From IMG/VR virus record IMGVR_UViG_2870464427_000002: 17,788 nt of DNA. The stretch is one strand, 5' to 3'. This document shows positions 1 through 17,240 of the stretch, piece after piece. The DNA is from a virus. Lineage: Duplodnaviria; Heunggongvirae; Uroviricota; Caudoviricetes. The position numbers and the translations under genes were made by a program. The notes under the pieces are model-generated. The model worked only from the letters and a program-made list of their open reading frames with translations, was not told the DNA's origin and made no database searches. Positions within the stretch are counted from its first letter, which is position 1; each line of letters opens with the position of its first letter.

Positions 1-765
1 ATGCGCGAACGGGTATCGCAGCAGTTAAAAGAAATAGAACGTCTCTATGGCGTGAAAGTGCTGTACGCCTGCGAATCAGGCAGCCGCGGCTGGGGATTTG
101 CCTCGCCCGATAGCGACTACGATGTACGGTTTTTGTATGTCCATCCGCTGGAATGGTATCTGCGTGTAGAGTCACCGCGCGATGTTATCGAGCTGCCCAT
201 CGACGACGAATTAGATGTTTCCGGTTGGGAGTGGCGTAAGGCGCTGGGATTATTGAAAGGCGCGAATCCGACGCTGATAGAATGGCTGGATTCTCCGGTG
301 GTCTATCAACAAGATGAAGAAACGATAACGGCGCTTAAGGCAATGGTCCCAATGTGGTTTTCTTCGTTGCGTGCACGCTGGCATTACTATTCGATGGCGC
401 AGAAAAACTTCCGCGGCTATTTGCAGGGCGATGAAGTTCGACTGAAAAAATACTTTTACGTGCTGCGTCCGCTGCTGGCCGTACGCTGGGTTGAAGCGGG
501 AAAAGGCGTGCCGCCAATGCGCTTTTCCGAGTTACTGGCGGGAAGCGAGCTTGATGCGCCGTTACGCGTAGAAATAGACGAACTGCTGGAGCGTAAACAG
601 CGAGCGGGGGAGGCGGAATATGGTCCGCGTCGTCCTTTGTTACATGCGTTTATTCGCGCGGAGCTGGCGCGCGGGGAAACTCCACCAGTGTTACCGGATA
701 GCAGAGAAGGGGACGTTAAGGAACTGGATAGTTTACTGTACCAGACGGTAATGCGCCGGGCGTGA
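1..765 (+). CDS. Pol-beta-superfamily nucleotidyltransferase, function unknown
   Basis: 254-aa ORF starting at window position 1 (an upstream extension cannot be excluded). N-terminal motif ESGSRGWGFASPDSDYDV fits the GS-x(9-13)-DxD nucleotidyltransferase signature. Followed by a hairpin terminator. Family-level call from motif only. Confidence 0.6.
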   Translation: MRERVSQQLKEIERLYGVKVLYACESGSRGWGFASPDSDYDVRFLYVHPLEWYLRVESPRDVIELPIDDELDVSGWEWRKALGLLKGANPTLIEWLDSPVVYQQDEETITALKAMVPMWFSSLRARWHYYSMAQKNFRGYLQGDEVRLKKYFYVLRPLLAVRWVEAGKGVPPMRFSELLAGSELDAPLRVEIDELLERKQRAGEAEYGPRRPLLHAFIRAELARGETPPVLPDSREGDVKELDSLLYQTVMRRA

Positions 766-781
766 TGCCCGGCGTTATTTT
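754..781 (+). terminator. Rho-independent terminator between convergent genes
   Basis: 8-bp GC stem (754-761 pairing with 767-774), 5-nt loop, then T-tract TTATTTT (775-781). Overlaps the nucleotidyltransferase stop codon (763-765). Confidence 0.5.
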
Positions 782-1235
782 ACGGCTGATATTGCCAGCT
801 ACTGACTAAAGCGTACAAGTGGTTTGGAGAATAGCGCCAGCTTTCCTTCAGTTGCAGAAATTCAGCACAAAATTCACTGCAAAACAGGCGATCGCGCTGT
901 TCTTTATTACCGATAATAATTCCTAATGCTCCGCGCCAGTCATATTTTTTGCCATCATGTTTACGGAAAAAAGTTTCCACATCCTGAAGGCTGGCCTGGA
1001 GCGGCAGCATATCCCACTTATCCGCTGGCAATGGCATTATTTTTCCGCGTACACCGCGATCGCGCAGTGATGCGGAGTAACAAAGGTATCTCTTTTCACC
1101 ATGCTTAACGGCTAATTCACAGTGGGAATAACTACCGCGTGTGATTTTACGGGTAAGCCAGTCAGCCAGTCGGGCAATACCACGGTGCTCTGTTCGGCCC
1201 TTATAACAAGCGAGCCAGACAGTGGTTTTACTCAT
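780..1235 (-). CDS. hypothetical protein; possible permuted papain-fold (NlpC/P60-superfamily, YiiX/PPPDE-like) hydrolase in the moron position after the tail-fiber chaperone
   Basis: 151-aa ORF whose start overlaps the stop of the upstream tail-fiber assembly gene by 4 bp, suggesting translational coupling. A His (YSHCELAV) precedes a Cys in an FCSEF context, reminiscent of permuted papain-like hydrolases. Functional call is weak. Confidence 0.4.
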   Translation of the reverse strand: MSKTTVWLACYKGRTEHRGIARLADWLTRKITRGSYSHCELAVKHGEKRYLCYSASLRDRGVRGKIMPLPADKWDMLPLQASLQDVETFFRKHDGKKYDWRGALGIIIGNKEQRDRLFCSEFCAEFLQLKESWRYSPNHLYALVSSWQYQP

Positions 1236-1939
1236 GGTTGCCAGCCTGTTGAATAATCGTAGTCGAGCACCGCCTGAATATCGTCCAGTGCTTCCACCGC
1301 CGCGATATGACGCTGGGCGTTTGCGAACAAGCGCATATCGTGATCCATGGTGACCGATTCAAACTGGGCAGCGATTTCGTTGGTTAACTCAATCAGACCA
1401 TTATTTTTAGTTTTCCACATTAACCCTGGCGGAATTTTTTTCTCCGCTCCCATTTTTGTGAGTGAAAGCTGTTGGATACGGCTATTTGTATCACTGTGGA
1501 AGTGATGGTTGTTGATGATGATGTAATCGGTTGTGATGGCATCGCGTTGATTTTTGATTGCAGAGTATTTCGCCTCTTTAGCATCGGTTATAGATGGTTG
1601 CCATTTTTCACCATCCCAACGTTCAAAAGAACCTGTCGGGGAAATGACTGTTACATTTTCAGGTAATTGGCCCAATTCTTGAATAATAAGCTGGCTACCA
1701 TCAACTTTGTTATAAACAGTTTGGCCTCGATGATCTTCAATAAGTCTCCATGTTTCATTCTCCCACACTGGAGTAAAACCAGGAGCCTTTTCGGGAGGTG
1801 AAATTAATGTGCAATAATTTGGCAAGCCTGTATTAGGTGCAATGTATGCATCAGACTCACCGATATATTCTTGGGAGTCTTGTGAAAAATTATATACAGT
1901 TAGTATTTGAGCTTCATCAGAAAAGGTAAAAGTATTCAT
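1232..1939 (-). CDS. tail fiber assembly chaperone (Tfa, P2 gpG / Mu U family)
   Basis: 235 aa. N-terminal half ([20 protein letters not shown]...[12 protein letters not shown]...LG.LPENVT.ISP...W.G..W) matches the conserved Tfa N-domain of enterobacterial prophages. Lies immediately downstream of the tail fiber gene with a 4-bp overlap. Confidence 0.85.
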
Positions 1940-3516
1940 GCTAGCCTCACAATATAGTTGAATGCGATATTTTTGACGGTGTTTTCGGTGCTGCCGGTAT
2001 TATTAATGGTTAGGGAGTGGTTATGGGAACCAAGTGCAATTGAATGCGAATGGGTGCCGAGCGCAACAGTGTGCGAATGGGAACCAATTGTAACACTATG
2101 AACGTGTGATGGAACATTAATTGCCAAAGATGATCCGGTACCAGGGCCATATGATGTCCAGTCGCCTTGGCCCTCTGGTGAAGATGTCCCTGTTCTTACT
2201 GTTGCAGTTGCCGAGCCTGAGCCAGATGAACTTGTTGTTTTATTTCCATGGTTAAATGATGATGCAGTTTTAGTCCCCAAGTCTGTGAGGGGTGTGGTTT
2301 TCGTCCCTAAATCAGTACTCGAAATACTGCCCGTATGGTTATGTGATTTAACTCCATCCAGTTCAGTAGATAATATAGCGCGCCCACTGGATGGTTTTCC
2401 TTTAATTATCCATCCGCGCATATCAGGAATAACACCAGATGGATATGCAATTGCCAGTTTGGGATAGGAGGTTTTATTAAATGTCTGACCTGTCATCAGA
2501 GCGTAGCCTGAAGGTACAGAATCAGATGGCCAGGGAATAGGCATCCCAACAGGACAGCTTTCCGCAGCAATAGCCTTATCCATCGCTGCCTTAACCGCGT
2601 TCGGCGTCGCAGCTTCCGTCGTACTGGTGCTGTTGGTCGCATTATTAAGTTTCACGACCCCTTTTTGTGTCAGCGTACCGTCGGGGATACCTGTTATTTG
2701 CCCCCAGGCATGGGTATGGCTGGACGGCGCCGCAGCAATAGCCTTGTCCATCGCTGCTTTAACCGCACTTGGCGTTGCAGCTTCCGTTGTACTGGTGCTA
2801 TTTGTTGTGTTGTTAAGTTTAACGACTCCTTTCTGCGTCAGTGTACCGTCAGGGATACCAGTAATCTGATTCCAGGCATGAGTATGACTGGTTGCGGCTT
2901 TGCTATTTGCCAGGTCATATGCCGTTTTTACCGCTTTTGGCGTGGCTGCTTTAGTCTCATCATCGCTATTAGTTGCATTACTGAGCTGCGTAAAACCTTT
3001 TTGTGTCAGCGTCGCATCAGGATGATTTCGTGATTGCTGATGTGTTTTCAACGCGTCATCGACATATTCCCTGGTTGCCACAACGACTGAAGGGTCGATC
3101 AAAAGCGTCACCGCGTCTGCATTGGTGACTTCCATGACCGCGCGTATAACGATTTGCTTACTGGCCCCCGCAGGTAATCGTGGCTTATAGGTTTCCGGGA
3201 ATTTACCAATAGCGACCAGCGTGCCGTCGGTATCCAGTAACCCAACTTCGCGTACATACCAGCCTCCGACTTGTTCGGGAATAATCGCTTCTGCGATAAC
3301 CCAGGCCGGATTATCTGGCGCAATTTTTAATGTATTGAGCTGACCACGCCAGACCTCATGGACTACTTTGGTCTGACTTTCTGTCGGTTCGATATATTTA
3401 CCATTACCGTCGCCAACTACCATAGTTTGCAGACGGATCTGTTTTTGCTCGGCCAGTGCTGAGGCAATTTTGGCTTTGCCTGCAGCAGTTAATATTGTAA
3501 AAAATTCACTTGCCAT
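1936..3516 (-). CDS. tail fiber protein (P2 gpH / Mu S-like)
   Basis: Start set at ATG 3514-3516 ([16 protein letters not shown]...), 5 bp after the gpI stop; the longer track ORF overlaps gpI and is rejected. Conserved baseplate-attachment N-domain, three tandem fibre repeats (TLTQKG...ATNS...AATP.AVK.A.D.A), Gly/Ser/Thr-rich C-terminus with repeated S-H-x-H motifs. Confidence 0.85.
2518..3012 (-). repeat. tandem coding repeats, unit about 171 bp (57 aa), three copies, inside the tail fiber gene
   Basis: Near-identical DNA blocks, e.g. 2641-2700 versus 2812-2870. Protein repeats [49 protein letters not shown]. Confidence 0.7.
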
Positions 3517-3518
3517 TA

Positions 3519-4250
3519 TTACTCCGGATATACAGACATAATTTCGGTGCTCCAGTATCCTGTGCCGACCTTCATCGGTTGGGATTGTGTAAGGCGATCG
3601 GGTTGATAAGGTAGTAGTTGGATATATTCCTCCACACAATAACCCGTCGCTAAAAATATTCCTGATGACTGGCTGAGGCTTTCTGCAACAGGAGGCAATA
3701 CTGTAATGACTTCCCCTCCTTGCATGGCGCTGCCAATAACTGGTATTGGGCTTCGATTAATAAGCCAAATAACAATGCTTTCCAGCTTTGAACGAACATT
3801 TTTATATTCATGAATTAATGTGATAAGTGCATTGAATTCATCTTCATTTAATCCTTTTTCCTCTAGTGTAATATTTACCTTAAAAAAATAAGCCCTTCCC
3901 CCATATTCAAACCATTCTGAAATAGTTCCGGGTAAGGAAAGTATTTCCAGCACTCGCCGTACCGCCCAAATTGTTCCTTTATATTTATGCAGTTCAATGG
4001 CTTGTTTAATTAACTCGCGTTTCTCCCGCTCATCGGTGGTAAATAACCAACCTTCCAGCCCCTGAACGTGAAATTGTTCTGCAAGGGCTGGTAATGCCGA
4101 AGCATCAACCAGGTCGACCAGATAAACCATCAACGCCGTCAGATCGAGTTGGGCAAAACGCTCGGCGGCGATGTTTGCCAGAATCGAAAAACGCTCATCG
4201 CTGGCAAGCGGCGGCGGTGGCAGCAATTTATCCATCGCTGACTCCGGCAA
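3519..4250 (-). CDS. tail/baseplate protein, P2 gpI family
   Basis: 243 aa. LLPPPP...ER...LD...VD..DASALP.LA..FHV.G...W......[21 protein letters not shown] matches the gpI family pattern. Start may be the internal Met at 4235; overlaps the gpJ stop. Confidence 0.8.
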
Positions 4251-5343
4251 TCGTGACGTCTATTGCAGTGCATTCCGCCCATTCATGCGCCTGCAAAATA
4301 CGTTTTGTAGGCATATTCAGCGCAACGTCATAGACGCCATCGACCTGTAACACTTTGATTATCTGGTTTGGCACAATGTCCTGCCCCAGATGTTTCTGCC
4401 GCTGTTGCGTCCAGAGGCTAATCGCTTTACGCGCCGCAGCCAGCGTTGTCTCCTGATCGGCGGTGGTAAACAGCATTAGCTGCGCACGGATCTCATACGG
4501 CACTCGAAGAGCGCATTTCGCACTCACTTTGTCGGTCAGCGGTCGTTTTTTCTCCTTGCTGACTTCTTGTTCAATCTGCGCCAGCAACTCCGTGCCGGGT
4601 AGACCATTCAGGGTTAGCGGGTAGATCTCCACGCAGCCTTCTGGCAATCCCTCGTCCGGCCCCAGTACTGCAACGTCAATAATCGACTGGCTAACAGAAA
4701 GCGTATGAAAGCGGTAGGCACCATAGCTGCCCGCATTACTAAAGCTTTCTGGTGCCAGTTGGATACGCTGGCGCAATGCGTCATCGCTCTCTTCACCGCA
4801 GCCGCCCGTTGACGCAGTCAGGTTGGTTACGTTGATGTCATAATGACCAATCCTGTCGACCAGTGCGCTAATTTGTGCAGGCTGCCAGCCGTTACCCTGT
4901 TCACCTGCTGCGAGGCTGGTGGCAGGAACGGCGATATGCAAACTCCTGGCCGGAAGCAGAACATCTTCATCGGTGGCGAACATCACGCTATCAGAGGCAC
5001 TGGCCCGCGTCCCCTGGGGAATCAGGATATTGCCGGGATACGCACTAACGACCGAAAACTGCAACGTCGTTTTTGCAGGCTGCGCAGGCAAACGGTGAAC
5101 TCCCACCAACTCCCCTAAATAATCCAGCATTGGCGCGCGGGAATACGCGACCAGGTTTTGTTTCGCCGCTTCCTGAATGGCGATGCGTACAAGGTTTTCA
5201 CGATAGGCAAACAGGTCGATGAGCAACCGCTCAGCCTGTGCCGGATAGAGTTTTTTACCACTGGCATCTTCGTATTGCGCAATCATCTCACTGGTAATTT
5301 GCGCAGGATCGCGGTCAATAAAATTGGGTTCGGCTATCGCCAT
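4228..5343 (-). CDS. baseplate wedge protein, gpJ family
   Basis: 371 aa. Segments GSYGAYRFHTLSVSQSIIDVAV, LGQDIVPNQIIKVLQVDGVYDV and C-terminal [14 protein letters not shown] align with P2 gpJ as I recall it. Confidence 0.85.
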   Translation of the reverse strand: MAIAEPNFIDRDPAQITSEMIAQYEDASGKKLYPAQAERLLIDLFAYRENLVRIAIQEAAKQNLVAYSRAPMLDYLGELVGVHRLPAQPAKTTLQFSVVSAYPGNILIPQGTRASASDSVMFATDEDVLLPARSLHIAVPATSLAAGEQGNGWQPAQISALVDRIGHYDINVTNLTASTGGCGEESDDALRQRIQLAPESFSNAGSYGAYRFHTLSVSQSIIDVAVLGPDEGLPEGCVEIYPLTLNGLPGTELLAQIEQEVSKEKKRPLTDKVSAKCALRVPYEIRAQLMLFTTADQETTLAAARKAISLWTQQRQKHLGQDIVPNQIIKVLQVDGVYDVALNMPTKRILQAHEWAECTAIDVTIAGVSDG

Positions 5344-5693
5344 AACACCTCCGTTGAGTTGATAACGCCGTCAGCGGCGCGCCATTGCACACGTAACGTC
5401 AGATGTTCGCCGTCGATTACTGGTGTCACCTTCAGCAACCGACAGCGCGGTTCCCACTGGCGGATGGCTTCCACCGACTCCCGTACCACATGCGGGATAG
5501 CCCGCTCGATGGGGTAATCGATGTAGTGCCACAAGTTGCTGCCAAACAGCGGTCTGTGGGGATCACTGCCGCGCGGTGTACGCAGAATGATGTGTATTGC
5601 CTGGTGAATATCATCCAGCCCGCAGACGTATTCTTCAGGCCGCTGCAAGGCCGGTTGCCAGTGCAGCGTTGAGGGGCGTGTTTTTGTGTTCAT
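5334..5693 (-). CDS. baseplate protein, gpW/gp25 family
   Basis: 119 aa. Core I...I.ILRTPRGS and W.Y...P.........V.EAIR.WEPR match the GPW/gp25 family. Confidence 0.8.
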   Translation of the reverse strand: MNTKTRPSTLHWQPALQRPEEYVCGLDDIHQAIHIILRTPRGSDPHRPLFGSNLWHYIDYPIERAIPHVVRESVEAIRQWEPRCRLLKVTPVIDGEHLTLRVQWRAADGVINSTEVLWR

Positions 5694-5766
5694 GAGGGTA
5701 TTTTCGCCCTGAACGGGCTGTGGAGATATTAAAGCGATTTAGAAAACTGATTGATTAAAAAGAGAA

Positions 5767-5786
5767 AACCCGCCATCAGGCGGGTT
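5767..5786 (-). terminator. hairpin with downstream U-tract on the minus strand, between gpV and gpW
   Basis: AACCCGCC-ATCA-GGCGGGTT perfect 8-bp stem. On the minus-strand transcript it is followed by TTCTCTTTTT. Sits in the 98-bp gap after the gpV stop (5792-5794). Confidence 0.4.
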
Positions 5787-5791
5787 AAAAG

Positions 5792-6493
5792 TCAGTGTGA
5801 ATGGTGGTTGGAGTTGCCACCGCTGTCCTGCAATGCGCCGCTGGCCTGAACGTTGCCGATCACGTTGACATTGCCGGTTATCGTGGCTGCGTTACCGATG
5901 CCTCCACTTCCTGCCATCCCGCCAAGCCAGGTGAGTTTTTTCATTACCGTGACGTTGCCAGTAAAGGTGCTCATGGGCGCATCTACCGTCACTGCTGCTG
6001 CTTTAACCTCGACCTTAGTGGCGTCGATGCTGACATCGGTCGCTTTAACATCGACGGTATCGGAAGTCACGGTGACGTGTTGGGCTTTAATCTCAACGTT
6101 GGGCGATGTCAGGCGGGTGCTGTCGATAACCTCAATCACGATTTTCTCGATACCGCCGTTAATCGTCAGCTGGTGCGTGCTGCGGTCATATTCAAACGCT
6201 GCGCCATCAGAAAACTGGACGTAACGTTTGTCGCGCGAGGCTACAGGCGCGGTGTCAACCGTAGAATAAACGGCACCCAGCACCACGCCATCTTCACCGT
6301 TATCGTCCAGCAGAACTTCCACTTGCTCGCCCATATCCGGTAGCCAGTAGTCTTTATTGTCCTGGGAATTGCGTTGAAGTACCGCAAGCCAGTTGCTCTT
6401 CAGATTGTCACACTCTGGTAGAGTGACCCGTACCCGAACACTGGTTTCGTCAATATCGCTGATAATCCCCGTTTGACGGGTTACTCCTTTCAT
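5792..6493 (-). CDS. baseplate central spike, gpV family
   Basis: 233 aa. N-terminal OB-fold-like region typical of gpV spikes, a repetitive beta-rich middle (VTVTSDTVDVKATDVSIDATKVEVKAAAVTVDA) and a His-rich C-terminal tip (GGNSNHHSH). Confidence 0.8.
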   Translation of the reverse strand: MKGVTRQTGIISDIDETSVRVRVTLPECDNLKSNWLAVLQRNSQDNKDYWLPDMGEQVEVLLDDNGEDGVVLGAVYSTVDTAPVASRDKRYVQFSDGAAFEYDRSTHQLTINGGIEKIVIEVIDSTRLTSPNVEIKAQHVTVTSDTVDVKATDVSIDATKVEVKAAAVTVDAPMSTFTGNVTVMKKLTWLGGMAGSGGIGNAATITGNVNVIGNVQASGALQDSGGNSNHHSH

Positions 6494-6502
6494 ATTTCCT
6501 CC

Positions 6503-7543
6503 TTACTGGCTGGTCGCTGGCCCGCGTGACACGTCGATTTCAGTGGTATAGCCGCTGCGCACAAAACTGTGAGTAGATTTATCAATCAGCCACTGACCGG
6601 AAATCACGCCAAAATCGGTCAGTTCAATTTTATTGCCCGCCGTCAGTTCCGGGCAGCCCATCATTGTGAGCGTTCCGGTTTGCTGATATTCGTTGTGGCT
6701 GTCGAGTGCAGCGTTAGCCTTTGCCTGTGCTGCGCCAACGTCCGTCGCCCGACTGTTCAGTTTTAGCGTGTCGGCACTAGTGCCGACTCCACGGACAGAT
6801 GGTTTTTGCTGGCTGTTGTGAGTGTAGATAACCAGTTCTTTTTTCTTACTATTTTGATGCTGTACGGTGGCGTTCTTGTAGATCCGGTTAATGGTGTCTT
6901 TGAAGGTAAAATGAGAAACCTCTTTGCGATCGATCTTTTTCACAGGCGTCAGGCAGCGCAGCGTGGGTAAATGTGAAAAAATCAGCTCTTTTGTCGTCAC
7001 TTTTACGGCATAACCATATTCACTGGCCAGACGTTTGAGAAATCCGACATCGGTTTCACCATACTGCGTTACCCGGTCGATGGTGAGCGACTCGATTTTG
7101 CCCACCAGTTTCAGACCGTGCGTTTGGGCAATACGGCTGGCGATCGCCGAAAGCGTCGTTTCTTCAAAGCCCTGGCTGTTACGGGTGCGCAGCGCCTGAT
7201 TGACGGAAGTGGCGATGCCATCAATATTTACCGTGGAAGGTGGCGCTGAAATATCAATTTTATCAATAATATACTGGCCACAATCGAGCAGCTTTTCCCC
7301 CTGATAACCTATATGCAGCGCCAGCGTATCGCCTTTGCCGGGATACCACTCTTTTATCCAGCGTCCATCTGTGTCATCCAGTGTAATTGCGATGGTATCC
7401 GACTCGTTTTTGATGCTGTCGTGGTAACTGATGCTGGTGACATAGGGTGTGATGTCATAAGTGATATCTTTATGCCCATACCAGAGGGTAAAAATGGGCG
7501 TGAGTGTGGCAAAGACGCCACCAGTTACGCTCATCTCAGCCAT
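6503..7543 (-). CDS. baseplate hub protein, P2 gpD (late control D) family
   Basis: 346 aa. Size, position between gpX and gpV, and overall composition fit the gpD/gp27-like hub family; call rests on synteny and general resemblance. Confidence 0.75.
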   Translation of the reverse strand: MAEMSVTGGVFATLTPIFTLWYGHKDITYDITPYVTSISYHDSIKNESDTIAITLDDTDGRWIKEWYPGKGDTLALHIGYQGEKLLDCGQYIIDKIDISAPPSTVNIDGIATSVNQALRTRNSQGFEETTLSAIASRIAQTHGLKLVGKIESLTIDRVTQYGETDVGFLKRLASEYGYAVKVTTKELIFSHLPTLRCLTPVKKIDRKEVSHFTFKDTINRIYKNATVQHQNSKKKELVIYTHNSQQKPSVRGVGTSADTLKLNSRATDVGAAQAKANAALDSHNEYQQTGTLTMMGCPELTAGNKIELTDFGVISGQWLIDKSTHSFVRSGYTTEIDVSRGPATSQ

Positions 7544-7740
7544 GGTGGGATCTCCGATAAGGTTTTATTAACGGAAATGACCGGAATAATGAGCTGAATA
7601 CCGGAAGGCAGTACCGGGTAAATGGCTACATGTGGATTGGCGGCGATTATGCGTTCATAAGCCAGCGCATCACCGTAGTAATGCCATGCCAGGTTATCCC
7701 AGCGTTCGCCATCGGTGGTGATATGTTCAAGGTATCGCAT
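7531..7740 (-). CDS. tail protein X (P2 gpX-like, LysM-like fold)
   Basis: 69 aa. W..L...YYG.......I..ANP..A....LP.G....IP pattern as in P2 gpX. Overlaps the gpD start. Confidence 0.7.
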   Translation of the reverse strand: MRYLEHITTDGERWDNLAWHYYGDALAYERIIAANPHVAIYPVLPSGIQLIIPVISVNKTLSEIPPWLR

Positions 7741-8693
7741 TACCAGCTCCTGGTAATGGTTACGGCAGCAAGCTGGCTCACTGCGGGAGTGGTTTGTTGT
7801 ACCGTTGTACGTGCCTGCTCAACCAACGACGTGGCTTTATCGAACGTCGCTTCGGCGATGTCGCTGGTAATGTCGTCGAAAAGCGCCTGAGCATGGTCAA
7901 CCAGCGTACTGGCGTCATTGGCGCAGTCCCGGATACCTGGCATGTTACCCAGTAAAGCTTTAATCTGCGCCGACAACGCTTTTGGTAGGCCTGCCAGCGT
8001 TTGCAGATCCATTGGCTGTTTAAACAGGGTTTCGATGGCGTCGATTGTCTTTTTCAATGACGTAATTATCTTTTCACACTTTTCTTTTAACGCTTTGGCC
8101 TCTTTAATCATTGCTTTCACTTTTGCCACCGTTTTTTTAATATCTTCAATGGATTGTGTCAGTTCATCCAGCATCTCTTTGGCCTTACGCATACCTTCTT
8201 CAATGGCGTTTAATATCTGATCAAACCAGGACTCCACCTTGTCGGGAAAATCGCTCGCCTTTTCCTCGATGTTGGGCTCCTGGGTGGTAATCGCCGGAGG
8301 TAAAAGTGGATTTTTAGGATCGCCGGTGTACTCCTGGAGCGACATCGTTCCGTTTTGGGCAATCACATTGCCCCAGGGATCGGTGTGCTGGTGGGTGGCG
8401 GTTAGCTCCGTAATCACAAACCAGCCGCGATAATCGCCATTGCCAAATACCAGTGCCATCGCCTTGTGAGCAAGCATGGCTTCACGCAGTCGGTTCAGCT
8501 CTGTTGTGGGCTGGCAAAACTGGCTGTGCAGGGAAAATTCCAGCGCCAGCATATCCAGCTTATCGCCAATAAACTGCACGCCGGGTTTGCCTTCTATACG
8601 GGCATGTGTGGCGTAATCCACGCCCATTGTGCTTTTAAAGCCGTCCCAGAATGTGACAACCTTAAATTCAATCTCTCCTAAAACGGCATACAT
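7740..8693 (-). CDS. gpU-like tail protein with a long C-terminal coiled-coil extension
   Basis: 317 aa. The first ~120 aa (MYAVLGEIEFKV...GKPGVQFIG...L.LEF.L.........L..L...AM....MALVFGNGDYRGWFVITEL) resemble P2 gpU. The remaining ~190 aa are Lys/Glu/Ala-rich heptad-like sequence. Start overlaps the tape measure stop by 1 nt. Confidence 0.65.
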   Translation of the reverse strand: MYAVLGEIEFKVVTFWDGFKSTMGVDYATHARIEGKPGVQFIGDKLDMLALEFSLHSQFCQPTTELNRLREAMLAHKAMALVFGNGDYRGWFVITELTATHQHTDPWGNVIAQNGTMSLQEYTGDPKNPLLPPAITTQEPNIEEKASDFPDKVESWFDQILNAIEEGMRKAKEMLDELTQSIEDIKKTVAKVKAMIKEAKALKEKCEKIITSLKKTIDAIETLFKQPMDLQTLAGLPKALSAQIKALLGNMPGIRDCANDASTLVDHAQALFDDITSDIAEATFDKATSLVEQARTTVQQTTPAVSQLAAVTITRSW

Positions 8694-11068
8694 TAGGCAT
8701 ACCCCCGGCGCTGCTGCTGCGCCATTACATCGTTAATCATTCTTTCCAGTTCGCGTTTACTCATCGTCAACACGTTCTGAATCTCTTTAGTGGTGTTTTG
8801 TCCGTTACCCTGCACGGTAATTTGTGGCGAAAAATTCACCTGAACTTTTCCTGAGGAACGGGAAGGTAGCGTCGCCGCTTTGGTTACGGATTTACCAGGT
8901 AAAGAGGCAGATACGGGTTTGGCGGCTGTATTTTTTGCCGCTGGCGCCGATGACGGCGTAGCCGTTTTGCCGGATGGCGCGAGTTGTTTGCCCACCGGCG
9001 GCGTTAAAATCGCACCGGCAACGCCTGGAACAACGGTCGCGGGGGAGACGGATGCGGTATTAGTCGTGCTTGTAATAGCTGTAGCCGATCCTTCTGTACT
9101 AATACCCATCGTGGTTTTTAGCCAGTCTGGGATGGCGTTTTTTACCTGATCAATAATGCCTTTCAGAGCGGGGAAGGCATTCATTATGCCGTCAACCAGA
9201 CTGCCCAGAAGATTGCTGCCGAACTCGCTAAAACTTGCAGGCATCTCGACACCAAACCAATTCATCACACTGGAAAAGGCGCTATAGAACAACTCCAGCG
9301 GTGACCAGTCGAGAATCAACCGACAAATTCCTGCAATGCCGCCGTCAAAGGCCGTGGTGATACGTTGCCAGATGGTCGAAAAGAACCTGGAGATAGGCTC
9401 CCAGTTGCGATAAATCAGATAAGCAGCGCCCGCAATCGCAGTGATGACCAGACCAATGGGATTCATCAGTAGCACCCGGCCTAGTGAGAGAACGGTCCGA
9501 CCAACCAGTTTCAATGTTCCAATCAGGCCACGACCAAGCAGTTGCGTTAGCCATTTTGCGCCGCCACCCAATGACTTAACCGCTGATAGCATCTTACTTG
9601 CCCCGCCTGTGAGCGCCAGACTTGCCTTGACTTTCAGGAAGATATCGACCAGACGAATAAACGGCGAGGTGATGAGGTTCGCGCCCAGCTTTAAAACATT
9701 CAGCGCACCGTTAAACAGCCAAATCGCCCCGACGATTTTCGCGATGTTTTGCACCAGTGTCGGGTGCTCACGTAGCCAGGCGCTGAACTGACGAATAACC
9801 GGCGTAAGGCTTTGTGCCAGCTCGCCAATCAGCGGCATTAATTGCAAGCCAATGCTGAGCCATAAATCATTTAACGCCAGCTGTAACGCTTTAGTCTGTT
9901 CAATGGGCGAGGCCATTTGCGCAGAAAAGTCGGCATCAATCAGATTCTTGCTGGTGGCTTGCATGGCAGAGGCTTTTAACTGGCGATATTCCTCCATATT
10001 CGCCAGCATAGGGGCCAGGAATTCCACTGTTTGCGCATCGCCGAACATTTCCCCCAGATTAAACTGCGTCACCATCGATTGCAGCGCATTGCTGCGGGCA
10101 GATAAATCTTCGATCTGCATGGTGCGTTTGAAGGTGTCGAGGATCGCCGGATTCATCTTCTCAAGCTGCATTTGCACGATATGAGTCATGGCTTCGCTAA
10201 CACCCATACCGTTTTGCTGATGCTCAAGCAGAGAGCCTTGCAGATCAACGCCCTGGCTGACGAACCAGTAATCGGTTTTTTTCGAAAAGGTGGTTTGCAG
10301 AAAGTGGTCGAAATTCTCCGCCGCCGCACTGGCGCTGGCCCCGTTTTTCATGGCGATCTGCATGGTGGCGGTCAGTTCAGCCATACCTTCCAGACCCTGA
10401 GCGCCGGTTTTACCTGCAAATTTCTCTATCCACTGCGTTTGTTCAGCAATGGCAGGCCCACCGCTTTTGCTAATGCCGTACATCATGTTTTGCGCGGCGT
10501 GGAAATTTTCCGGGGCAATATTCAGTCGATCATGGGTTGCGAGCGCGGCATTCGCCCATGTTTCAGCACTTTCGCGCGTGGCGGTGGCAGCTTTGGCGAT
10601 CTCCGGCATATAACGGTTGAGATCCTGTATCGACGACAAATTGCCTTCGATCAGCGTTTGGGCTGCGTTCTGTAAGGTGGTCTGCTGCTGGTTAAAATCC
10701 ATGCTCCAGTCGCGCAGATTAAGGCTGAGCGTCTCGCGGGTTGTAGCATTCATCCCACCTTTGGTCGCCATATTGACCATGTTGTCCTGAAACTCATACG
10801 GCAACTTCCAGTCGGGGGCTTCAACATTGAATACTTTGCTAAATTGCCCGGCAAATGTTTGGGTTTTCTCCATCAGATTAGCGCGGCTGCGGCTATTTTC
10901 CTCCAGGCGGAGAGCGGAATCGGCAAGCTGCTGCGTTAGTTTGATAACTGTCGCCTGCTGAGTAGAGAGAGTTAACAATGTTCTGGCGTTGAGTGAGCCG
11001 TAACGGGCTATTGCCTGCGTCAACGTCTCATTACGCGCCTGAAGCTGGGTAATAATATCGTTGGCCAA
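8693..11068 (-). CDS. tail tape measure protein
   Basis: 791 aa. Alpha-helical N-terminal region, central hydrophobic Gly-rich segments (LIGTLKLVGRTVLSLGRVLLMNPIGLVITAIAGAAYLIY), Ser/Thr/Pro-rich C-terminal region. Lies between the chaperone and baseplate genes. The track start is a TTG codon, so the exact start is uncertain. Confidence 0.85.
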   Translation of the reverse strand: MANDIITQLQARNETLTQAIARYGSLNARTLLTLSTQQATVIKLTQQLADSALRLEENSRSRANLMEKTQTFAGQFSKVFNVEAPDWKLPYEFQDNMVNMATKGGMNATTRETLSLNLRDWSMDFNQQQTTLQNAAQTLIEGNLSSIQDLNRYMPEIAKAATATRESAETWANAALATHDRLNIAPENFHAAQNMMYGISKSGGPAIAEQTQWIEKFAGKTGAQGLEGMAELTATMQIAMKNGASASAAAENFDHFLQTTFSKKTDYWFVSQGVDLQGSLLEHQQNGMGVSEAMTHIVQMQLEKMNPAILDTFKRTMQIEDLSARSNALQSMVTQFNLGEMFGDAQTVEFLAPMLANMEEYRQLKASAMQATSKNLIDADFSAQMASPIEQTKALQLALNDLWLSIGLQLMPLIGELAQSLTPVIRQFSAWLREHPTLVQNIAKIVGAIWLFNGALNVLKLGANLITSPFIRLVDIFLKVKASLALTGGASKMLSAVKSLGGGAKWLTQLLGRGLIGTLKLVGRTVLSLGRVLLMNPIGLVITAIAGAAYLIYRNWEPISRFFSTIWQRITTAFDGGIAGICRLILDWSPLELFYSAFSSVMNWFGVEMPASFSEFGSNLLGSLVDGIMNAFPALKGIIDQVKNAIPDWLKTTMGISTEGSATAITSTTNTASVSPATVVPGVAGAILTPPVGKQLAPSGKTATPSSAPAAKNTAAKPVSASLPGKSVTKAATLPSRSSGKVQVNFSPQITVQGNGQNTTKEIQNVLTMSKRELERMINDVMAQQQRRGYA

Positions 11069-11257
11069 AATTGTTTCTCTTTAAATATTGATAATGGCCC
11101 GCTGGTTATTTTTCTAAAAAAAGGGGCAGGGAAGAAATAAACCTGACGGGCTTGGGAAACTCGCAGACATCAGGTCTGCGAGTCATATTCGATTTTTATT
11201 TGGGCGCTGGCTTCATCCAGCCAGTTGCTAAAGTCATCGACGGTAAGGGCGTCTATC

Positions 11258-11575
11258 TCACTGGGTGGAAAGCGAAACCATCTCGCCAGTAACGCCATCG
11301 CTTGCCATAACAGTGGCGGATTCTGTAGCCACGCTAAGCATGGATTGAAATCGTTTCTGCAATGCCTGGTAATCCAGCAAATCCATTTCAGCTAAATCTT
11401 CTGGCACCAGTCCGGTCATTGCCGCCATTAGCGGTTCATCCCACTCTTCAGGTTTTTCGCTGATCCGGCGCGCGTTGCGCATATCTTTTACTTTCAGGCG
11501 ACGTAATTGCAGAGTGTTAATTACGTCTCCCGCCGCTGAAGTAAACGGGAACTGTAAGATATAATGTTCTTTCAT
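11258..11575 (-). CDS. tail assembly chaperone, P2 gpE family
   Basis: 105 aa, acidic, in the conserved position between tube and tape measure. An alternative frame stays open past its stop (see findings). Confidence 0.75.
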   Translation of the reverse strand: MKEHYILQFPFTSAAGDVINTLQLRRLKVKDMRNARRISEKPEEWDEPLMAAMTGLVPEDLAEMDLLDYQALQKRFQSMLSVATESATVMASDGVTGEMVSLSTQ

Positions 11576-11625
11576 TTTGTGTCCTTATTTATTTTGCAAA
11601 GTTCGGGGCCGTAGCCCCGAATAAC

Positions 11626-12150
11626 TTAGCCACCGATGTTATTGCGATAGGTACTTAATTGATCCACACCATTAACCCGGAAAATATTGGCCATATAATC
11701 AAGTTCAAGCAGCGTTTCACCATCAACTACTTGTTTAATATAAGTGCAACCAAAGGCGCTGCTGAATTCCGGGTTTTCATTCTGTTTAAATGTGCCCAGT
11801 GGATTCTTTTTAAACATCACGGTTAAATGTGTCACTAGCGCTAATTGATTCGCTTTCCCCTGGGAGTTATAGCAATCAATACTGGAGCGGCACTGTAATG
11901 CAACCGCCTGCCACGGGTTTGCCGTTTTACGCATTACGTCCTGATAGAAGGAGTTCCATTTAATTTCGCCCTCCAGTTTATCGAAACCCGCCGGGAGTTC
12001 GATTTTACCCACCATGCCCAGTGCTTTATGCTCCTGCATAATTAAACTGACATCCGGCAATTTAATTTCGGTTGCACGACCTAAAAGGTTATTACCATCG
12101 AGATAAATATTGGCGTTGGTAATACGGTTAATTTGAATTTTTCCAGCCAT
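11626..12150 (-). CDS. tail tube protein (P2 FII family)
   Basis: 174 aa. C-terminal ...VNGVDQLSTYRNNIGG closely matches the P2 FII C-terminus (VNGVD.L...R.NIG). Start overlaps the sheath stop by 1 nt. Confidence 0.85.
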   Translation of the reverse strand: MAGKIQINRITNANIYLDGNNLLGRATEIKLPDVSLIMQEHKALGMVGKIELPAGFDKLEGEIKWNSFYQDVMRKTANPWQAVALQCRSSIDCYNSQGKANQLALVTHLTVMFKKNPLGTFKQNENPEFSSAFGCTYIKQVVDGETLLELDYMANIFRVNGVDQLSTYRNNIGG

Positions 12151-13573
12151 TAGCTATTGCTCTCCAGAGAGACTAAATATTCAGAAGTAATTTCAGTTTC
12201 AAACGTCAGACGTTCCAGCGGCGGCGGCGGGGTGAATTTATAGCTCAGCAATAAATGCCCAGCGCTGAGTTCAGTCGGTGAATTTCGCGCCGGATCGTAC
12301 CAGCATTCAAAGCCAAGCAGTGCGCCGTCGGCAATCAGCTTACGGCCCCAGGTATTTACCGATTCGGTCAGGGCATCAATCAGCGCCTGATTAATCGGCA
12401 TATCAATATACTGCTGACTGAAATAACGGATTGACTCATTAATTACATCGCCTGTCCGGCGGACGTTTTCAAAGTTACGCATATGGGTCACGGTAGGCCA
12501 CGCTGCAGTGCGGTTGCCCCACAAGCGCAGACCAGAGCCGTAACTATTGAAAATAGTGGTAATGCCGTTTTCGTTTAGCTGATTCACTTCGCTTTGTGGA
12601 TCATCAATCATTGCGGAAAGCGAACGTTCAATACCGGTAATACCCTGAATTTCTTGGTTTGAGTTGCTCCACCAGAAACCTTTTTCGAGGTCTACTTTGG
12701 CACGTAGCCCGGCAGCGCGCGAAGAGAGCGGTTCGAGAACTTCCTGGTTAGTGATGCCATCGTAAACTTTGACGTGTGGGTAACATAAACGCGCACGATC
12801 AGAGCTGGTGTTGAAGTTGATAGCCCCTTGCGAACCGCGTCCTGCCAATACCTGCTGGAATGTCGTCCCAATCGGGGCATCAATGTAGGTAATCGCACCA
12901 AGTTTTTCCGCTTGTGCAATCAGCTCTGTAGTTACTGATTTTTGCGTACAGAACACGGGAGCAAGCAGGATTTTGGCGTAGAAACCATACAGGTTATAGG
13001 TGTCCTGTAGCAGTTTCATCCCCGTGCGGTCGCCTGCGGTATTTACGGTACCGATAATATCGGCTGCGGTGACCTTTGTAGGGTCGCACCAGGAATAATA
13101 GGCACAAACTTTCGCACCAGGAGGAATGTCGGCTCCTTTACGGGTAATTATGCCTGTTTGTTCATCTACGCTAAATGCTGCGGTGTTAAAGGTTGATGAA
13201 TTTGATGAAGAGGGCTTTAGTACCACGTTACGCACATTGCGGTGAGCGAGCTTCGCCTGGTTGTTAGCATCAAAAGTGATACTCTCATTGCTGATGTTGG
13301 AGCCATGTTTTGCCGGATCCAGCACGTTAATCACCACCACCGTACCGGCACCGTGGTCATAAATTGCCTTCAGTGCCTGTGGGATCGTAAAGTTAGCCTG
13401 AGTCGAGCCAAACTGCGCAGCATCGCTTTCAGAAAGGCATAATGTTGGTTTATTTACCGGACCGCAGGGGCTGTACCGATTAAAGCGATGACGGCGGATT
13501 TTACCGCTTTAACCGGACGCGGGCCGGTTTCAATTTCAATAGTTTCTACACCGTGCAGATAATTAGCTGCCAT
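12150..13573 (-). pseudogene. contractile tail sheath (P2 FI / Mu L family) interrupted by an apparent 1-nt frameshift near 13457-13468
   Basis: From ATG 13573 one frame encodes MAANYLHGVETIEIETGPRPVKAVKSAVIALIGTAPAVR then stops (TAA 13454-13456). The adjacent frame is open from 13508 and continues PVNKPTLCLSESDAAQFG...VVVINV... through the 396-aa track ORF, whose C-terminus (LRLWGNRTAAWPT...YKFTPPPPLERLTFE) is sheath-like. One extra G in mRNA GCGGTCCGG would join the two frames. Confidence 0.7.
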
Positions 13574-13760
13574 GTACAATTTCCTCTACGTTATTTTGTT
13601 CTTCCTGAGTGATGACAGGAGTCAGATGATTGCGGGCAATCATGGTCATGACCCACTCGTTGTCTTCTGGCAGATCAATTTCACTGTTCGGCCACAATAA
13701 GATTTCTTGTCCATCGGCAAGGGTGACGCCGCTTGCTGGGCCGTTGTAGATGTATTTCAT
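13563..13760 (-). CDS. small hypothetical protein upstream of sheath
   Basis: 65-aa ORF overlapping both neighbours. Its position recalls the small gene preceding the sheath gene in Mu-like tail modules. No motif recognised. Confidence 0.45.
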   Translation of the reverse strand: MKYIYNGPASGVTLADGQEILLWPNSEIDLPEDNEWVMTMIARNHLTPVITQEEQNNVEEIVHGS

Positions 13761-14212
13761 TCAGTTTCCTCGTAGTTAACTTCCGTAAGCAGGGGAAGAT
13801 CCGTGCTTTCCTGTTCAGCGATAAATAGCGAGCTGGTCGCCATTTCCAGGATGTAGCGGCAGAAACCGCCGCTCTCACCCGTATTAATTTCTTTTTCAAG
13901 CCAAAGAAGACGATCGCAATCAGGAAGCTGAAGGCCACCCAATGCGCTGCGTATGTGATCAAGTGCGTTTAATGCATCACAATTTTTGCCAACAATAACG
14001 GTGGCGGTTAAGCGGAGTATTTGCTGTTGCACGATGGCATTACTGCTTTCGGGCGTAGCAAAGACAGAACCGCTATAATTAATAATCACTGCAACTCGTT
14101 GTGTCTGTGGAATATATTTCTGGGCATCCTTAGATGAAATAAATATATCCATTTCGGAGTTGTGTTCACGTAATCTGGTCACAACAGAATTCATTACAGA
14201 TAAAATTTCCAT
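13757..14212 (-). CDS. hypothetical tail-associated protein (possible tail completion protein)
   Basis: 151-aa ORF with an AAGG ribosome-binding site upstream of ATG 14210-14212; first gene after the terminator. Function inferred from position only. Confidence 0.5.
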   Translation of the reverse strand: MEILSVMNSVVTRLREHNSEMDIFISSKDAQKYIPQTQRVAVIINYSGSVFATPESSNAIVQQQILRLTATVIVGKNCDALNALDHIRSALGGLQLPDCDRLLWLEKEINTGESGGFCRYILEMATSSLFIAEQESTDLPLLTEVNYEETE

Positions 14213-14317
14213 ATAGGCTGTACCTTAATTACCGCTCACTTCGTTATCGTTGAAATGTATTCTGAAGCAGCGAAGGTGAAGAATCTTTTAATGTGATTTA
14301 GAGAAAAAATTGAATGG

Positions 14318-14343
14318 TTAAAAAAATCCCCACCCTTACATAA
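14318..14343. terminator. strong bidirectional intrinsic terminator between the lysis cassette and the tail genes
   Basis: Perfect 11-bp stem TCCCCACCCTT / AAGGGTGGGGA with loop ACAT, flanked by A7 (14311-14317) and T5 (14344-14348). On the minus strand the hairpin is followed by a U7 tract. Confidence 0.6.
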
Positions 14344-14356
14344 GGGTGGGGATTTT

Positions 14357-14671
14357 TCAATAACTGCCACGTTGTAACAGCTCGATTTTGCTATATAAGG
14401 CATCCAGCTTCGCTTCTAATACTGCTTGCCCACGAAGATAATCTTCTCTGCGGACATAATGCAGCGGAAGCTCGGCACGAAATTCGAGAAATTCTCTTTC
14501 CAGTTTCGACCAACTTGTTTCTGATTCCCGGCGCGCGTTTTCCAGAGATTCAAAACGCTCATTAAGTCGTTTTTCAATTTGTGCTAACAGCAGTTTTCCG
14601 GCAGCAAACATTAATCCAACGAAGGAAAGCATAAGGGAGATCACTTCCCAAAAATCGATACTGAGTTTCAT
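14357..14671 (-). CDS. membrane-anchored coiled-coil protein, possible lysis accessory (spanin-like)
   Basis: 104 aa. N-terminal transmembrane helix (VISLMLSFVGLMFAAGKLLL) followed by a charged helical region. Last gene of the lysis block. Confidence 0.45.
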   Translation of the reverse strand: MKLSIDFWEVISLMLSFVGLMFAAGKLLLAQIEKRLNERFESLENARRESETSWSKLEREFLEFRAELPLHYVRREDYLRGQAVLEAKLDALYSKIELLQRGSY

Positions 14672-14683
14672 CGGCCCCTCTGA

Positions 14684-15289
14684 TTAATGAAGACAGCTTG
14701 CCTGTCCCCAGAGTAAATAGCGGGCGGCATGTTGATAGAGGATCATCTTTGGATAGCGACGATTTTCTCGCCAGTTCGTGGCGCTGCGCCCGGCGTTGAC
14801 TTGCTCAACATGACCAAACCAGCTAGTGGCATCTAACCCTTTGGATGCAGCCAGTTTTTTATCCCGGTTAACCCACCCCTGACCGCCGTTATAGGCGCTT
14901 AGGGTAAACGCCATACGCTGACAATCATTTTTCGCAGAGATGTTTTTCCACAAATGCTGGTCATATTGCACCAGCGCGCGAATCGCCCAGGTTGGGTTAT
15001 ACGGTTTGTTTTCACGCAATTGTGGATACAACTGGCTTATCCATGTCGCTGTAGCAGGCATAAATTGCGCCATACCTTGTGCGCCAACGGGGGAACGTAC
15101 CATTGGCTGCCAGGCGGACTCCTGGTGTAATTGCCCGGCAAAGTCGGCCACTGGGGCATTCAGCCCCCAGACTTCTCGAGCTGTACGAATTAGTTCGTTT
15201 CGCCATGCCAGAGAGGCTCTCGGCGGTTCAGAGGCGTTGAGTGGGAAAAGAACGAAAATAATCATAGACGCGATATATTTCAGCCACAT
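14684..15289 (-). CDS. lytic transglycosylase (SLT/GH23 domain) with N-terminal signal sequence; putative endolysin
   Basis: Start set at ATG 15287-15289 (MWLKYIASMIIFVLFPLNA...), 2 bp after the holin-like stop; the track's longer N-terminal extension is rejected. SLT motifs present: HQESAWQP, GAQGMAQFMPATA, AYNGG. Confidence 0.8.
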   Translation of the reverse strand: MWLKYIASMIIFVLFPLNASEPPRASLAWRNELIRTAREVWGLNAPVADFAGQLHQESAWQPMVRSPVGAQGMAQFMPATATWISQLYPQLRENKPYNPTWAIRALVQYDQHLWKNISAKNDCQRMAFTLSAYNGGQGWVNRDKKLAASKGLDATSWFGHVEQVNAGRSATNWRENRRYPKMILYQHAARYLLWGQASCLH

Positions 15290-15291
15290 CA

Positions 15292-15579
15292 CTATAGCCC
15301 TAACGCGACGGAAAGGCAGACGGCAGCAACGATGATAGCCCGGCGAATCATTGCCGCCGCGCAGCAACGCGGTTCCTTCCAGGGGCAAAAAGAGTCAGGC
15401 CGTGCCCAGGGGAACAAACTGCGATCGAGCCAGTATCCCAGCACCGCGGAAAGCGAAACCAGGCTTAGTTTATAAATGACGACCGGGATTTGTGCTGAAG
15501 AGGTCCAGCCGATCACGACAAACAGCGCGACGGAAGCGACCAGCCAACCGGAAAGCCGGGGAAGAGTGACTTTTTTCAT
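15292..15579 (-). CDS. small membrane protein, putative holin
   Basis: 95 aa with two to three predicted transmembrane segments. AGGAG ribosome-binding site 8 nt upstream of ATG 15577-15579. Immediately precedes the transglycosylase. Confidence 0.5.
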   Translation of the reverse strand: MKKVTLPRLSGWLVASVALFVVIGWTSSAQIPVVIYKLSLVSLSAVLGYWLDRSLFPWARPDSFCPWKEPRCCAAAMIRRAIIVAAVCLSVALGL

Positions 15580-15875
15580 ACGGTATCTCCTGATAAGTGA
15601 GCGTTTAGTGTCGCCAGAACCCGCCAGTGAAGAATGAAAAAAGCTTTAATAAATAAGTTTAAAAAATAGATTCTCTATAAATGAACATGCCCGCTAATAA
15701 ATCCACTCAGCAATTAAAGAGCAAAAGGTGACCTCGCGAATAAGCGCGTCATTATGCAGGGAAAAGATGATGGTGAATCGTAGGAATAGTCAGTAGTTAT
15801 TTGATTTTTAAAGTTTGTTTAAGAAAGTCAGCGACTGTGAGGGAAACGATCTTTTTACACTACAAGTAAAAATAA

Positions 15876-15889
15876 TACTGTATGTGTAT
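15876..15889. promoter_or_regulatory. left half of a LexA (SOS) box split by the insertion (TACTGT + duplicated spacer)
   Basis: Removing the insertion and one duplication copy gives TACTGTATGTGTATACAGTA, a perfect 20-bp palindrome with the CTGT-N8-ACAG architecture (18/20 to TACTGTATATATATACAGTA). Confidence 0.45.
15882..15889. repeat. target-site duplication, left copy (ATGTGTAT)
   Basis: Identical 8-mer directly abutting the left inverted repeat; second copy at 17206-17213. 8 bp is the duplication size expected for ISL3-family elements. Confidence 0.75.
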
Positions 15890-17205: not shown

Positions 17206-17213
17206 ATGTGTAT
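17206..17213. repeat. target-site duplication, right copy (ATGTGTAT)
   Basis: Identical 8-mer directly abutting the right inverted repeat. Confidence 0.75.
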
Positions 17214-17219
17214 ACAGTA
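17206..17219. promoter_or_regulatory. right half of the split LexA (SOS) box (duplicated spacer + ACAGTA)
   Basis: See left half. This half lies 21 bp upstream of a TTGACA hexamer. Confidence 0.45.
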
Positions 17220-17240
17220 TCGTGTAAAATGATACACCTG

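Follow-up and report, generated by a model that had tools for sequence, protein, structure and literature searches.

A putative mosaic tail fibre with a gp37-type tip and a Tfa-class chaperone in a contractile-tail gene cluster of Escherichia coli

The stretch of DNA analysed here (the window, 17,788 nucleotides of the Caudoviricetes record IMGVR_UViG_2870464427_000002 of IMG/VR) carries on its minus strand a tail fibre gene followed by a gene for a Tfa-class protein. The fibre gene occupies positions 1936–3516 as an intact open reading frame (ORF) of 1,581 nt, which codes for 526 amino acids (aa; MASEFF...IVRLA) and has its stop codon at 1936. Translation probably begins at the ATG at 3516, in agreement with the RefSeq coding sequence (CDS) WP_000135569.1. 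The protein is identical to this RefSeq entry, which is annotated by PGAP as 'phage tail protein' in E. coli 2016C-3878 (NZ_CP029747) and is found in many other genomes; among the PHROGs families it matches phrog_295, 'tail fiber protein', with E = 3e-213. Directly upstream on the same strand lie Tail_P2_I (3519–4250) and Baseplate_J (4228–5343) genes, the homologues of gpI and gpJ of a contractile-tail operon. A megablast search of the fibre and Tfa DNA against 50,697 phage records gave no match, and the kinship to phages is visible at the protein level alone. NCBIfam contains no model matching either protein. A promoter scan inside the region returned one weak site, below the shuffled expectation.

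DNA that is 100% identical to the fibre gene of the window, such as positions 2538–3785 of the locus sequence L002 (equivalent to 2269–3516 of the window), is presented by PGAP as one 526-aa CDS in some genomes and as two 'incomplete' pseudogene fragments in others. A real disruption behind these fragments was considered and rejected. Because the fibre ORF is uninterrupted, the split annotation is an artefact of the annotation of a mosaic protein.

All parts of the fibre described below are encoded on the minus strand. The N-terminal domain (aa 1–149; positions 3070–3516) matches Phage_tail_fib (PF12571) with E = 1.6e-59 over nearly the full length of the profile (positions 1–149 of 150), and it is 97–100% identical among the alleles found at this locus. 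A preliminary description of this DNA had proposed a conserved N-terminal attachment domain, which is indeed present, but the interval assigned there to the fibre, 1936–3012, begins within the first repeat unit of the shaft and leaves out the very domain described.

The shaft is recognised by Pfam as three Phage_fiber_2 (PF03406) stretches (E = 8.3e-52). In-register comparison resolves it into unit 1 (aa 155–210; 2887–3054), unit 2 (aa 211–266; 2719–2886) and unit 3 (aa 267–322; 2551–2718), the last two being delimited also by Tandem Repeats Finder and by a repeat search. The period is exactly 168 bp or 56 aa, with TLTQKG anchors at aa 169, 225 and 281. Units 2 and 3 are 88% identical in amino acids and 79% in nucleotides, and unit 1 is 46–48% and 51% identical to them, respectively. 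Tandem Repeats Finder reports a period of 168 with 2.0 copies and 83% matches, so that just two copies are recognisable at the DNA level. The shaft thus consists of one old, diverged unit and two younger, close ones. Of the three tandem copies of 171 bp (57 aa) described previously, the number of units stands; the period has to be corrected, and the copies are not equal. Also missed in that description were two His-x-His (HxH) motifs (SHTHAW, aa 210–215 and 266–271), with which units 2 and 3 open as H211-T-H213-A-W and H267-T-H269-A-W; unit 1 has no opening HxH. The shaft of the R-pyocin fibre contains an HxH iron site (PMC6116203), and this precedent, along with the conservation of the motif, suggests that each unit has one structural site, which probably binds metal.

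This architecture is that of the P2 gpH and Mu gpS fibres, which share the PF12571 domain, the PF03406 shaft and the location of the gene after gpJ and gpI homologues. Shaft unit 1 matches residues 99–155 of Mu gpS (5YVQ) in a PDB sequence search (E = 7e-6). Mu differs in the invertible G segment, which switches S with S' and U with U' and provides an alternative tip. Neither was found here: positions 1–4300 of the window have no significant inverted repeats (one 19-nt pair with 84% complementarity), and the same search for an invertible segment revealed no invertase and no second pair of tip and Tfa.

The C-terminal part of the fibre is of a different type. In a phmmer search against the PDB, aa 317–526 match the needle of T4 gp37 (2XGF, positions 25–242 of chain 2xgf_A) with E = 1.8e-63, and the homology extends over the whole of domains D10–D11, with 119 identical residues at 215 aligned positions (55%). 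The collar or D10-like domain (aa 323–390; 2347–2550) contains the Pfam domain Collar (PF07484, aa 324–370, E = 7.7e-11) and aligns with the gp37 collar, the limits of D10 in gp37 being residues 811–881 (PMC6957217). It is followed by a needle or D11-like domain (aa 391–509; 1990–2346), delimited by the alignment to gp37, and by a C-terminal strand predicted to return to the collar (aa 510–526 and the stop codon; 1936–1989). The strand is near-invariant in homologues, and the last 16 residues, 511–526, are identical to the C-terminus of gp37 (residues 1011–1026). In T4 the tip comprises the last ~215 residues of a protein of 1026 aa, whereas here it sits on a P2/Mu-type base and shaft of 322 aa. 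In both cases a gp38-related chaperone gene lies immediately downstream.

The needle contains the five HxH strings of the preliminary description, all found exactly: H392/394 (SHNHT, aa 391–395; motif at 2335–2343), H471/473 (SHVHS, aa 470–474; 2098–2106), H480/482 (SHSHT, aa 479–483; 2071–2079), H489/491 (THSHS, aa 488–492; 2044–2052) and H498/500 (SHNHS, aa 497–501; 2017–2025). They align with H883/885, H966/968, H980/982, H989/991 and H998/1000 of gp37, that is, with five of the exactly seven HxH motifs of the crystallised T4 tip (at 883, 915, 929, 966, 980, 989 and 998). The last four are carried by a micro-repeat of 9 aa or 27 nt that had been overlooked (2002–2106, aa 471–505; four copies of G-S/T-H-x-H-S/T-V/I-x-I/L; Tandem Repeats Finder period 27), and they follow one another at an exact spacing of 9 residues (aa 471, 480, 489 and 498). 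In gp37 this spacing is limited to the last three motifs.

In the T4 needle seven iron ions are aligned along the axis, each octahedrally coordinated by HxH histidines of the three chains (PMC6957217; PMC6116203). By analogy, the five motifs of the present tip are likely to bind metal ions, probably iron, along the needle axis. As regards the T4-type tip with an HxH metal needle that was proposed before, its homology to gp37 is well established by the alignment, while its metal is carried over from T4. The histidines are also well conserved: among 61 aligned homologous tips H392/394, H480/482, H489/491 and H498/500 are invariant and H471/473 are at least 90% conserved, while the surrounding residues vary.

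This tip module is widespread. It was found in 508 phage records at 50–63% identity, in T-even gp37, in lambdoid side tail fibres and in Peduovirus (P2-like) fibres, and more than 1,200 proteins of a large protein collection match it. Some Peduovirus fibres, such as that of P24A7b (58% identity), likewise combine it with their own base. The lambda side tail fibre protein orf-314 has a tip 47% identical to the present one (E = 9e-78) and the same gene order, fibre then Tfa (orf-194), but the insertions of its aligned tip are longer and its HxH motifs more numerous. Two homologue searches together gave 63 distinct tips, of which five have 5 HxH motifs, 49 have 6 and nine have 7, so that the complement found here is among the smallest in the family.

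A second allele at the same locus in E. coli (allele B, WP_022646408.1, 536 aa) permits the variable part of the tip to be delimited. Alleles A (that of the window) and B are essentially identical except in a hypervariable cassette at aa ~407–490 (2047–2298), which corresponds to the distal stem and tip and is defined by the protein alignment of the two alleles and by the conservation profile of the 63 tips. Within it they are almost unrelated, and outside it they differ at 3 residues. The DNA core in which no A/B similarity is detectable, seen as a gap in the blastn alignment, spans 2088–2220. The A-type tip is of the same length in alleles with two, three and four shaft units, and in the two-unit and four-unit alleles its synonymous and non-synonymous codon differences number 25:15 and 26:14. 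Since the same length recurs and synonymous differences outnumber non-synonymous ones, the A-type cassette seems to be maintained by selection and not to be degenerating. The receptor-contact residues of gp37 are located in the distal stem and needle-tip stretch (PMC6957217); the position of these residues and the hypervariability of the cassette point to aa ~407–490 as the receptor-binding surface and specificity determinant. Its sequence is unrelated to that of T4, whose OmpC/lipopolysaccharide specificity is not transferable to this fibre.

The start codon of the Tfa gene overlaps the fibre stop by 4 nt. Tfa (235 aa, minus strand) consists of two domains, and its AlphaFold2 (AF2) model has a pLDDT of 94. 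The N-terminal one (aa 1–116 in the model; 1592–1939) is beta-rich and of the Caudo_TAP_N type, as judged from blastp and from PF28596, which is recorded on Tfa orthologues. Residues 1–145 are 38% identical to lambda Tfa (E = 2e-35), 44% to Tfa of phage Chlobot and 25% to T4 gp38 (E = 9e-12), all three of which are encoded beside gp37-type tips. The C-terminal domain (aa 117–235 and the stop codon; 1232–1591) is DUF4376 (PF14301, aa 119–227, E = 1.9e-14), modelled as an alpha/beta fold with three long helices plus hairpins. PF02413 covers only positions 1–74 of its 131 on this Tfa, i.e. the canonical C-terminal part of Caudo_TAP is not matched, and the DUF4376 half shows no similarity to the C-termini of lambda, T4 or P2 Tfa. 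Lambda Tfa differs in having the canonical Caudo_TAP C-domain. Mu Tfa and Pam3 gp25 have the same two-domain build, with an N-domain that co-varies with the fibre tip and a C-domain conserved within the lineage, but there the C-domain is the short helical Caudo_TAP one.

Comparison of alleles shows which half of Tfa goes with the tip. All five gp37-type tips examined at the locus are paired with a Tfa of Caudo_TAP_N and DUF4376. In E. fergusonii, where the tip is not of the gp37 type, the N-half of Tfa is unrelated and the DUF4376 half is ~80% identical in the alignment; E. ruysiae, also with a non-gp37 tip, has the same 217-aa, DUF4376-only architecture. In the E. coli protein P0247 (213 aa) this N-domain (99% identical over 76% of the query) is joined to a canonical Caudo_TAP C-domain, which shows that the two halves recombine independently. 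The earlier suggestion that a divergent C-terminal half of Tfa matches the fibre has therefore to be reversed: it is the N-half that tracks the type of tip, and the DUF4376 half is constant. A tip-matched N-domain is thus supported by natural variation and fits the published model, in which, as PMC9608196 states with reference to work on Mu Tfa, attachment to the fibre tip is the task of a variable N-domain and oligomerisation that of a conserved C-domain.

The length of the shaft differs widely among relatives. In the 120 homologues that match the whole fibre best, the number of units varies from 1 to 9, so that the three units found here make a short shaft; of 422 unit spacings 277 measure exactly 56 aa, and an HxH motif, most often H-x-H-x-W, stands at the start of 350 of the 422 non-first units. 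Fibres with two, three, four, five and six units, differing in exact steps of 56 aa, were found at the orthologous locus: two units in a 470-aa fibre with an A-type tip from a Logan assembly of a Sequence Read Archive run (L012); three in the window (526 aa) and in E. coli allele B (L004, 536 aa), with gp37-type tips A and B, respectively; four in a 582-aa fibre of E. albertii with an A-type tip (L011); five in a 498-aa fibre of E. fergusonii (L010) and six in a 554-aa fibre of E. albertii (L014), the last two with non-gp37 tips. The second unit of the two-unit allele is a hybrid, having the diagnostic bases of unit 2 over its first ~125 nt and those of unit 3 over its last ~40 nt, and this is the trace that unequal exchange of units leaves behind. 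The proposal that the DNA repeats could alter fibre length is borne out by these alleles: the number of repeats at related loci is not invariant.

Taken as a whole, these features most probably describe a mosaic fibre, and we put the probability of this reading at about 0.85. The fibre would be a homotrimer of a Mu/P2-like contractile tail, composed of four exchangeable modules, with a metal-stapled tip of the gp37 type, dependent on Tfa and evolving by two routes. As suggested by its family and by gene order, the N-terminal PF12571 domain (aa 1–149) would dock the fibre on the baseplate wedge formed by gpI and gpJ, which are encoded just upstream. The shaft of three 56-aa units (aa 155–322) would set the reach of the fibre, and the H-x-H-x-W of units 2 and 3, as in the R-pyocin shaft, would each put three histidine pairs round an axial metal ion. 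In the collar and needle (aa 323–526) the chain is expected to go out to the tip and then to return; the five HxH motifs would supply 15 histidine pairs per trimer and, as in T4, staple the three chains round about five axial metals, probably iron. The distal cassette would then present the receptor-binding surface. Folding of the fibre would depend on the translationally coupled downstream Tfa, the N-domain of which belongs to the lambda Tfa and T4 gp38 class serving gp37-type tips. The first route of change would be unequal recombination between repeat units, altering shaft length in steps of 56 aa, and the second an exchange that involves the tip cassette by itself or else the tip and the Tfa N-domain as one unit. 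A fibre of this kind seems ordinary, though uncharacterised, and follows the well-known swapping of tail-fibre modules, the kind being already known.

Several observations weigh against this reading. The tip has neither of the two HxH motifs of the ascending strand in T4 (H915/917 and H929/931), and G434 and A436 occupy a position where at least 90% of the 61 homologues have an HxH. Because H929 and H931 are essential in T4 gp37 (PMC6957217) and the ascending motifs are absent here, the fold of the distal stem and tip may differ from that of T4. The AF2 monomer model of the tip has a pLDDT of 65.6 and a pTM of 0.33; the needle scores about 60, and the collar (83–87) is the sole confident part. 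Foldseek places 2XGF first for this model (E = 8.5e-14), yet with a TM-score of 0.30 for what is a monomer model with a poor needle. A poor needle is to be expected when an obligate intertwined trimer is modelled as a monomer; since confidence is limited to the collar, the geometry of the histidines rests on homology. As to Tfa, a Foldseek search of its model against the PDB returned nothing below E = 0.1 and no solved relative of DUF4376; weak prefoldin-like hits, none of them below that value, were disregarded. DUF4376 probably replaces the usual oligomerising C-domain. Finally, the tail machine of the window may be dead, as discussed next.

The cluster to which the fibre belongs extends over 780–17788 of the window and corresponds to 13610–31234 of the locus sequence L001. 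In the copy of NZ_CP029747, which is free of insertion sequences (IS), it comprises genes for Mor, holin, SLT, a membrane protein, a Mu Gp37-family protein, sheath, tube, tail chaperone and tape measure, homologues of gpU, X, D, V, W, J and I, the fibre and Tfa; on the yjbD side the island contains a slipin gene, an RlaP nucleotidyltransferase gene and a 151-aa ORF (phrog_1128). The gene of the Mor-family activator is divergent and a lysis cassette is present, and the annotation of this island lists no head, integrase, transposase or replication genes. In the E. coli chromosome the cluster lies between the yjbD side and lysC, and 195 of 5,426 complete E. coli genomes carry it. The DUF3811 (yjbD)/rluF side is common to E. 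coli, E. albertii, E. fergusonii, E. ruysiae and an Enterobacter sp. with a partly deleted cluster; the lysC side was seen in E. coli only.

Two lesions in this copy of the cluster raise the question of whether the fibre is a relic, which, in a decaying cluster, no longer becomes part of a functional particle, regardless of its descent. In the sheath gene (12150–13574) a run of five G is reduced to four at position 13471 in comparison with NZ_CP029747, which leaves an ORF of 396 aa instead of 474 aa. At 15890–17205, between the holin and Mor genes, there is an ISL3-family (ISKox3-like) element with a 406-aa transposase, flanked by duplicated ATGTGTAT; the insertion is common to just one or two complete E. 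coli genomes, e.g. EC0585 (NZ_CP195049), and might cut the activator off from the late operon. Other strains carry other inactivating lesions: the tape measure gene of 2016C-3878 is a PGAP pseudogene with an internal stop (A there at the position of G9544 in the window, where the ORF of 791 aa is open), an IS1 splits the allele-B fibre gene of E. coli NRZ96052a (NZ_OZ501657; positions 2788–3485 of L006), a further independent inactivation, and the Enterobacter cluster is partly deleted. Nevertheless, such a relic appears unlikely. The ORFs of the fibre, of Tfa and of the baseplate proteins are all intact, dozens of E. coli genomes carry the fibre at 100% identity (of 148 matching records, 46 reach at least 99%), synonymous codon differences prevail in the tip comparisons, and five species have retained the cluster at one and the same locus. 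The 195 complete genomes possessing the cluster all lack the sheath deletion, which is located in a homopolymer and may for these reasons be a sequencing error, if not strain-specific decay.

Tail and lysis genes free of head, integrase and replication genes, together with a constant site in several species, are the signature of a domesticated tail cluster, and the cluster is a candidate R-type tailocin. Literature searches for a tailocin already described at this locus, whether in E. coli, Salmonella or E. albertii, gave no specific match; as far as can be told from the text, kosakonicin and the P2-like tailocins of Dickeya are other clusters. It is possible, although we regard it as a tentative extension and not as the probable case, that the cluster is a vertically kept R-type tailocin of Escherichia and Enterobacter beside yjbD, and not a prophage, the spectrum of which is tuned by a shaft of 2–6 units and by swaps of the cassette or of the tip with the Tfa N-domain. 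The A-type tip without the distal HxH motifs may furthermore be a shortened architecture with a new receptor.

A different division of labour between fibre and chaperone was considered as well, namely that Tfa, or its DUF4376 domain, stays on the tip as an adhesin or co-adhesin and itself recognises the receptor, like gp38 of T2 and S16 or the virion-retained Tfa of Mu. Mu and Ur-lambda Tfa are reported in mature particles (PMC9608196), PHROGs labels the family that the whole protein matches end to end (phrog_1807, E = 6e-99) 'tail fiber protein', and the present Tfa is longer than that of lambda (235 versus 194 aa) with a confidently modelled two-domain fold. Receptor recognition by Tfa is nevertheless improbable, as the Tfa proteins of alleles A and B are 1 aa apart while the fibre cassette is hypervariable, which places the variable surface on the fibre, and as the N-domain is homologous to lambda Tfa and to T4 gp38, the latter being a chaperone for folding that is absent from the mature particle (PMC9608196).

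The repeats of the shaft might also be thought to form a contingency locus, in which RecA-mediated recombination or slippage would often change the length of the fibre within one population. Orthologous alleles do differ in copy number, one of them with a hybrid unit, but this explanation is very improbable. Units 2 and 3 have no perfect match longer than 16 nt, and they differ by 19 synonymous and 7 non-synonymous codons. Among the matches listed from complete E. coli genomes, all full-length fibre rows measure 1581 or 1611–1641 nt, which are the sizes of the two three-unit alleles A and B. The two-unit allele has 16 mismatches in its first 630 nt, and the alleles of other copy number have likewise diverged elsewhere in the gene, so the changes of copy number should be old. 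The short maximum identity, the synonymous differences and the presence of only three-unit sizes in the E. coli rows make the change of length look like a real but slow event on the evolutionary timescale, not an active switch.

That the HxH motifs are compositional or serve another role, such as pH sensing or nickel or zinc binding unrelated to folding, instead of stapling the chains with axial iron, is scarcely credible: although the identity of the metal is not readable from sequence and T4 gp12 was crystallised with zinc at its HxH site (PMC6116203), chance is excluded by shuffling (7 motifs in the 526 aa of the whole fibre against 0.58 expected, reached in 0 of 200,000 shuffles; 5 in the tip against 0.52, reached in 5 of 200,000; 14 of the 18 fibre histidines lie in such motifs), and the motifs of the tip align residue for residue with the HxH of gp37 described as iron sites and stay invariant or nearly so amid variable surroundings.

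The fibre in itself adds little, as the combination of a P2/Mu-type fibre with a gp37-type tip and a lambda-Tfa-type chaperone is textbook horizontal module exchange. Of greater value is the natural series at one orthologous locus, with shafts of 2–6 units, two alternative cassettes in a fibre that is otherwise the same, and changes of tip class in which the N-domain of Tfa moves together with the tip. This series separates the determinants of length, specificity and chaperone matching, and it backs the N-domain of Tfa, not the C-domain, as the tip-matched half; it could guide the engineering of the host range of tailocins and phages. What remains new is the tail-only cluster, apparently undescribed and conserved across Escherichia, and the reduced HxH complement of this tip allele.

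The genes beyond Tfa deserve a brief mention. The stop codon of Tfa overlaps by 4 nt with the 151-aa ORF (780–1235, minus strand), which matches phrog_1128, 'enoyl-CoA hydratase/carnithine racemase-like' of the moron category, with E = 8e-59 and has no match in Pfam or NCBIfam. At this locus it is present wherever Tfa has DUF4376 and is absent in the six-unit E. albertii allele (L014), the sole one with a canonical Caudo_TAP Tfa. Converging on the tail cluster from the plus strand is the gene of the RlaP-family nucleotidyltransferase (1–765; PF10127, E = 4e-96), and a strong GC-rich hairpin terminator at 753–775 lies between the convergent gene ends. The RlaP and slipin genes are present in E. 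coli and in L010, L011 and L012, and they are absent or have a glycosyltransferase gene in their place in L014, L015 and L016; they may be cargo of the island and not part of the core genome.

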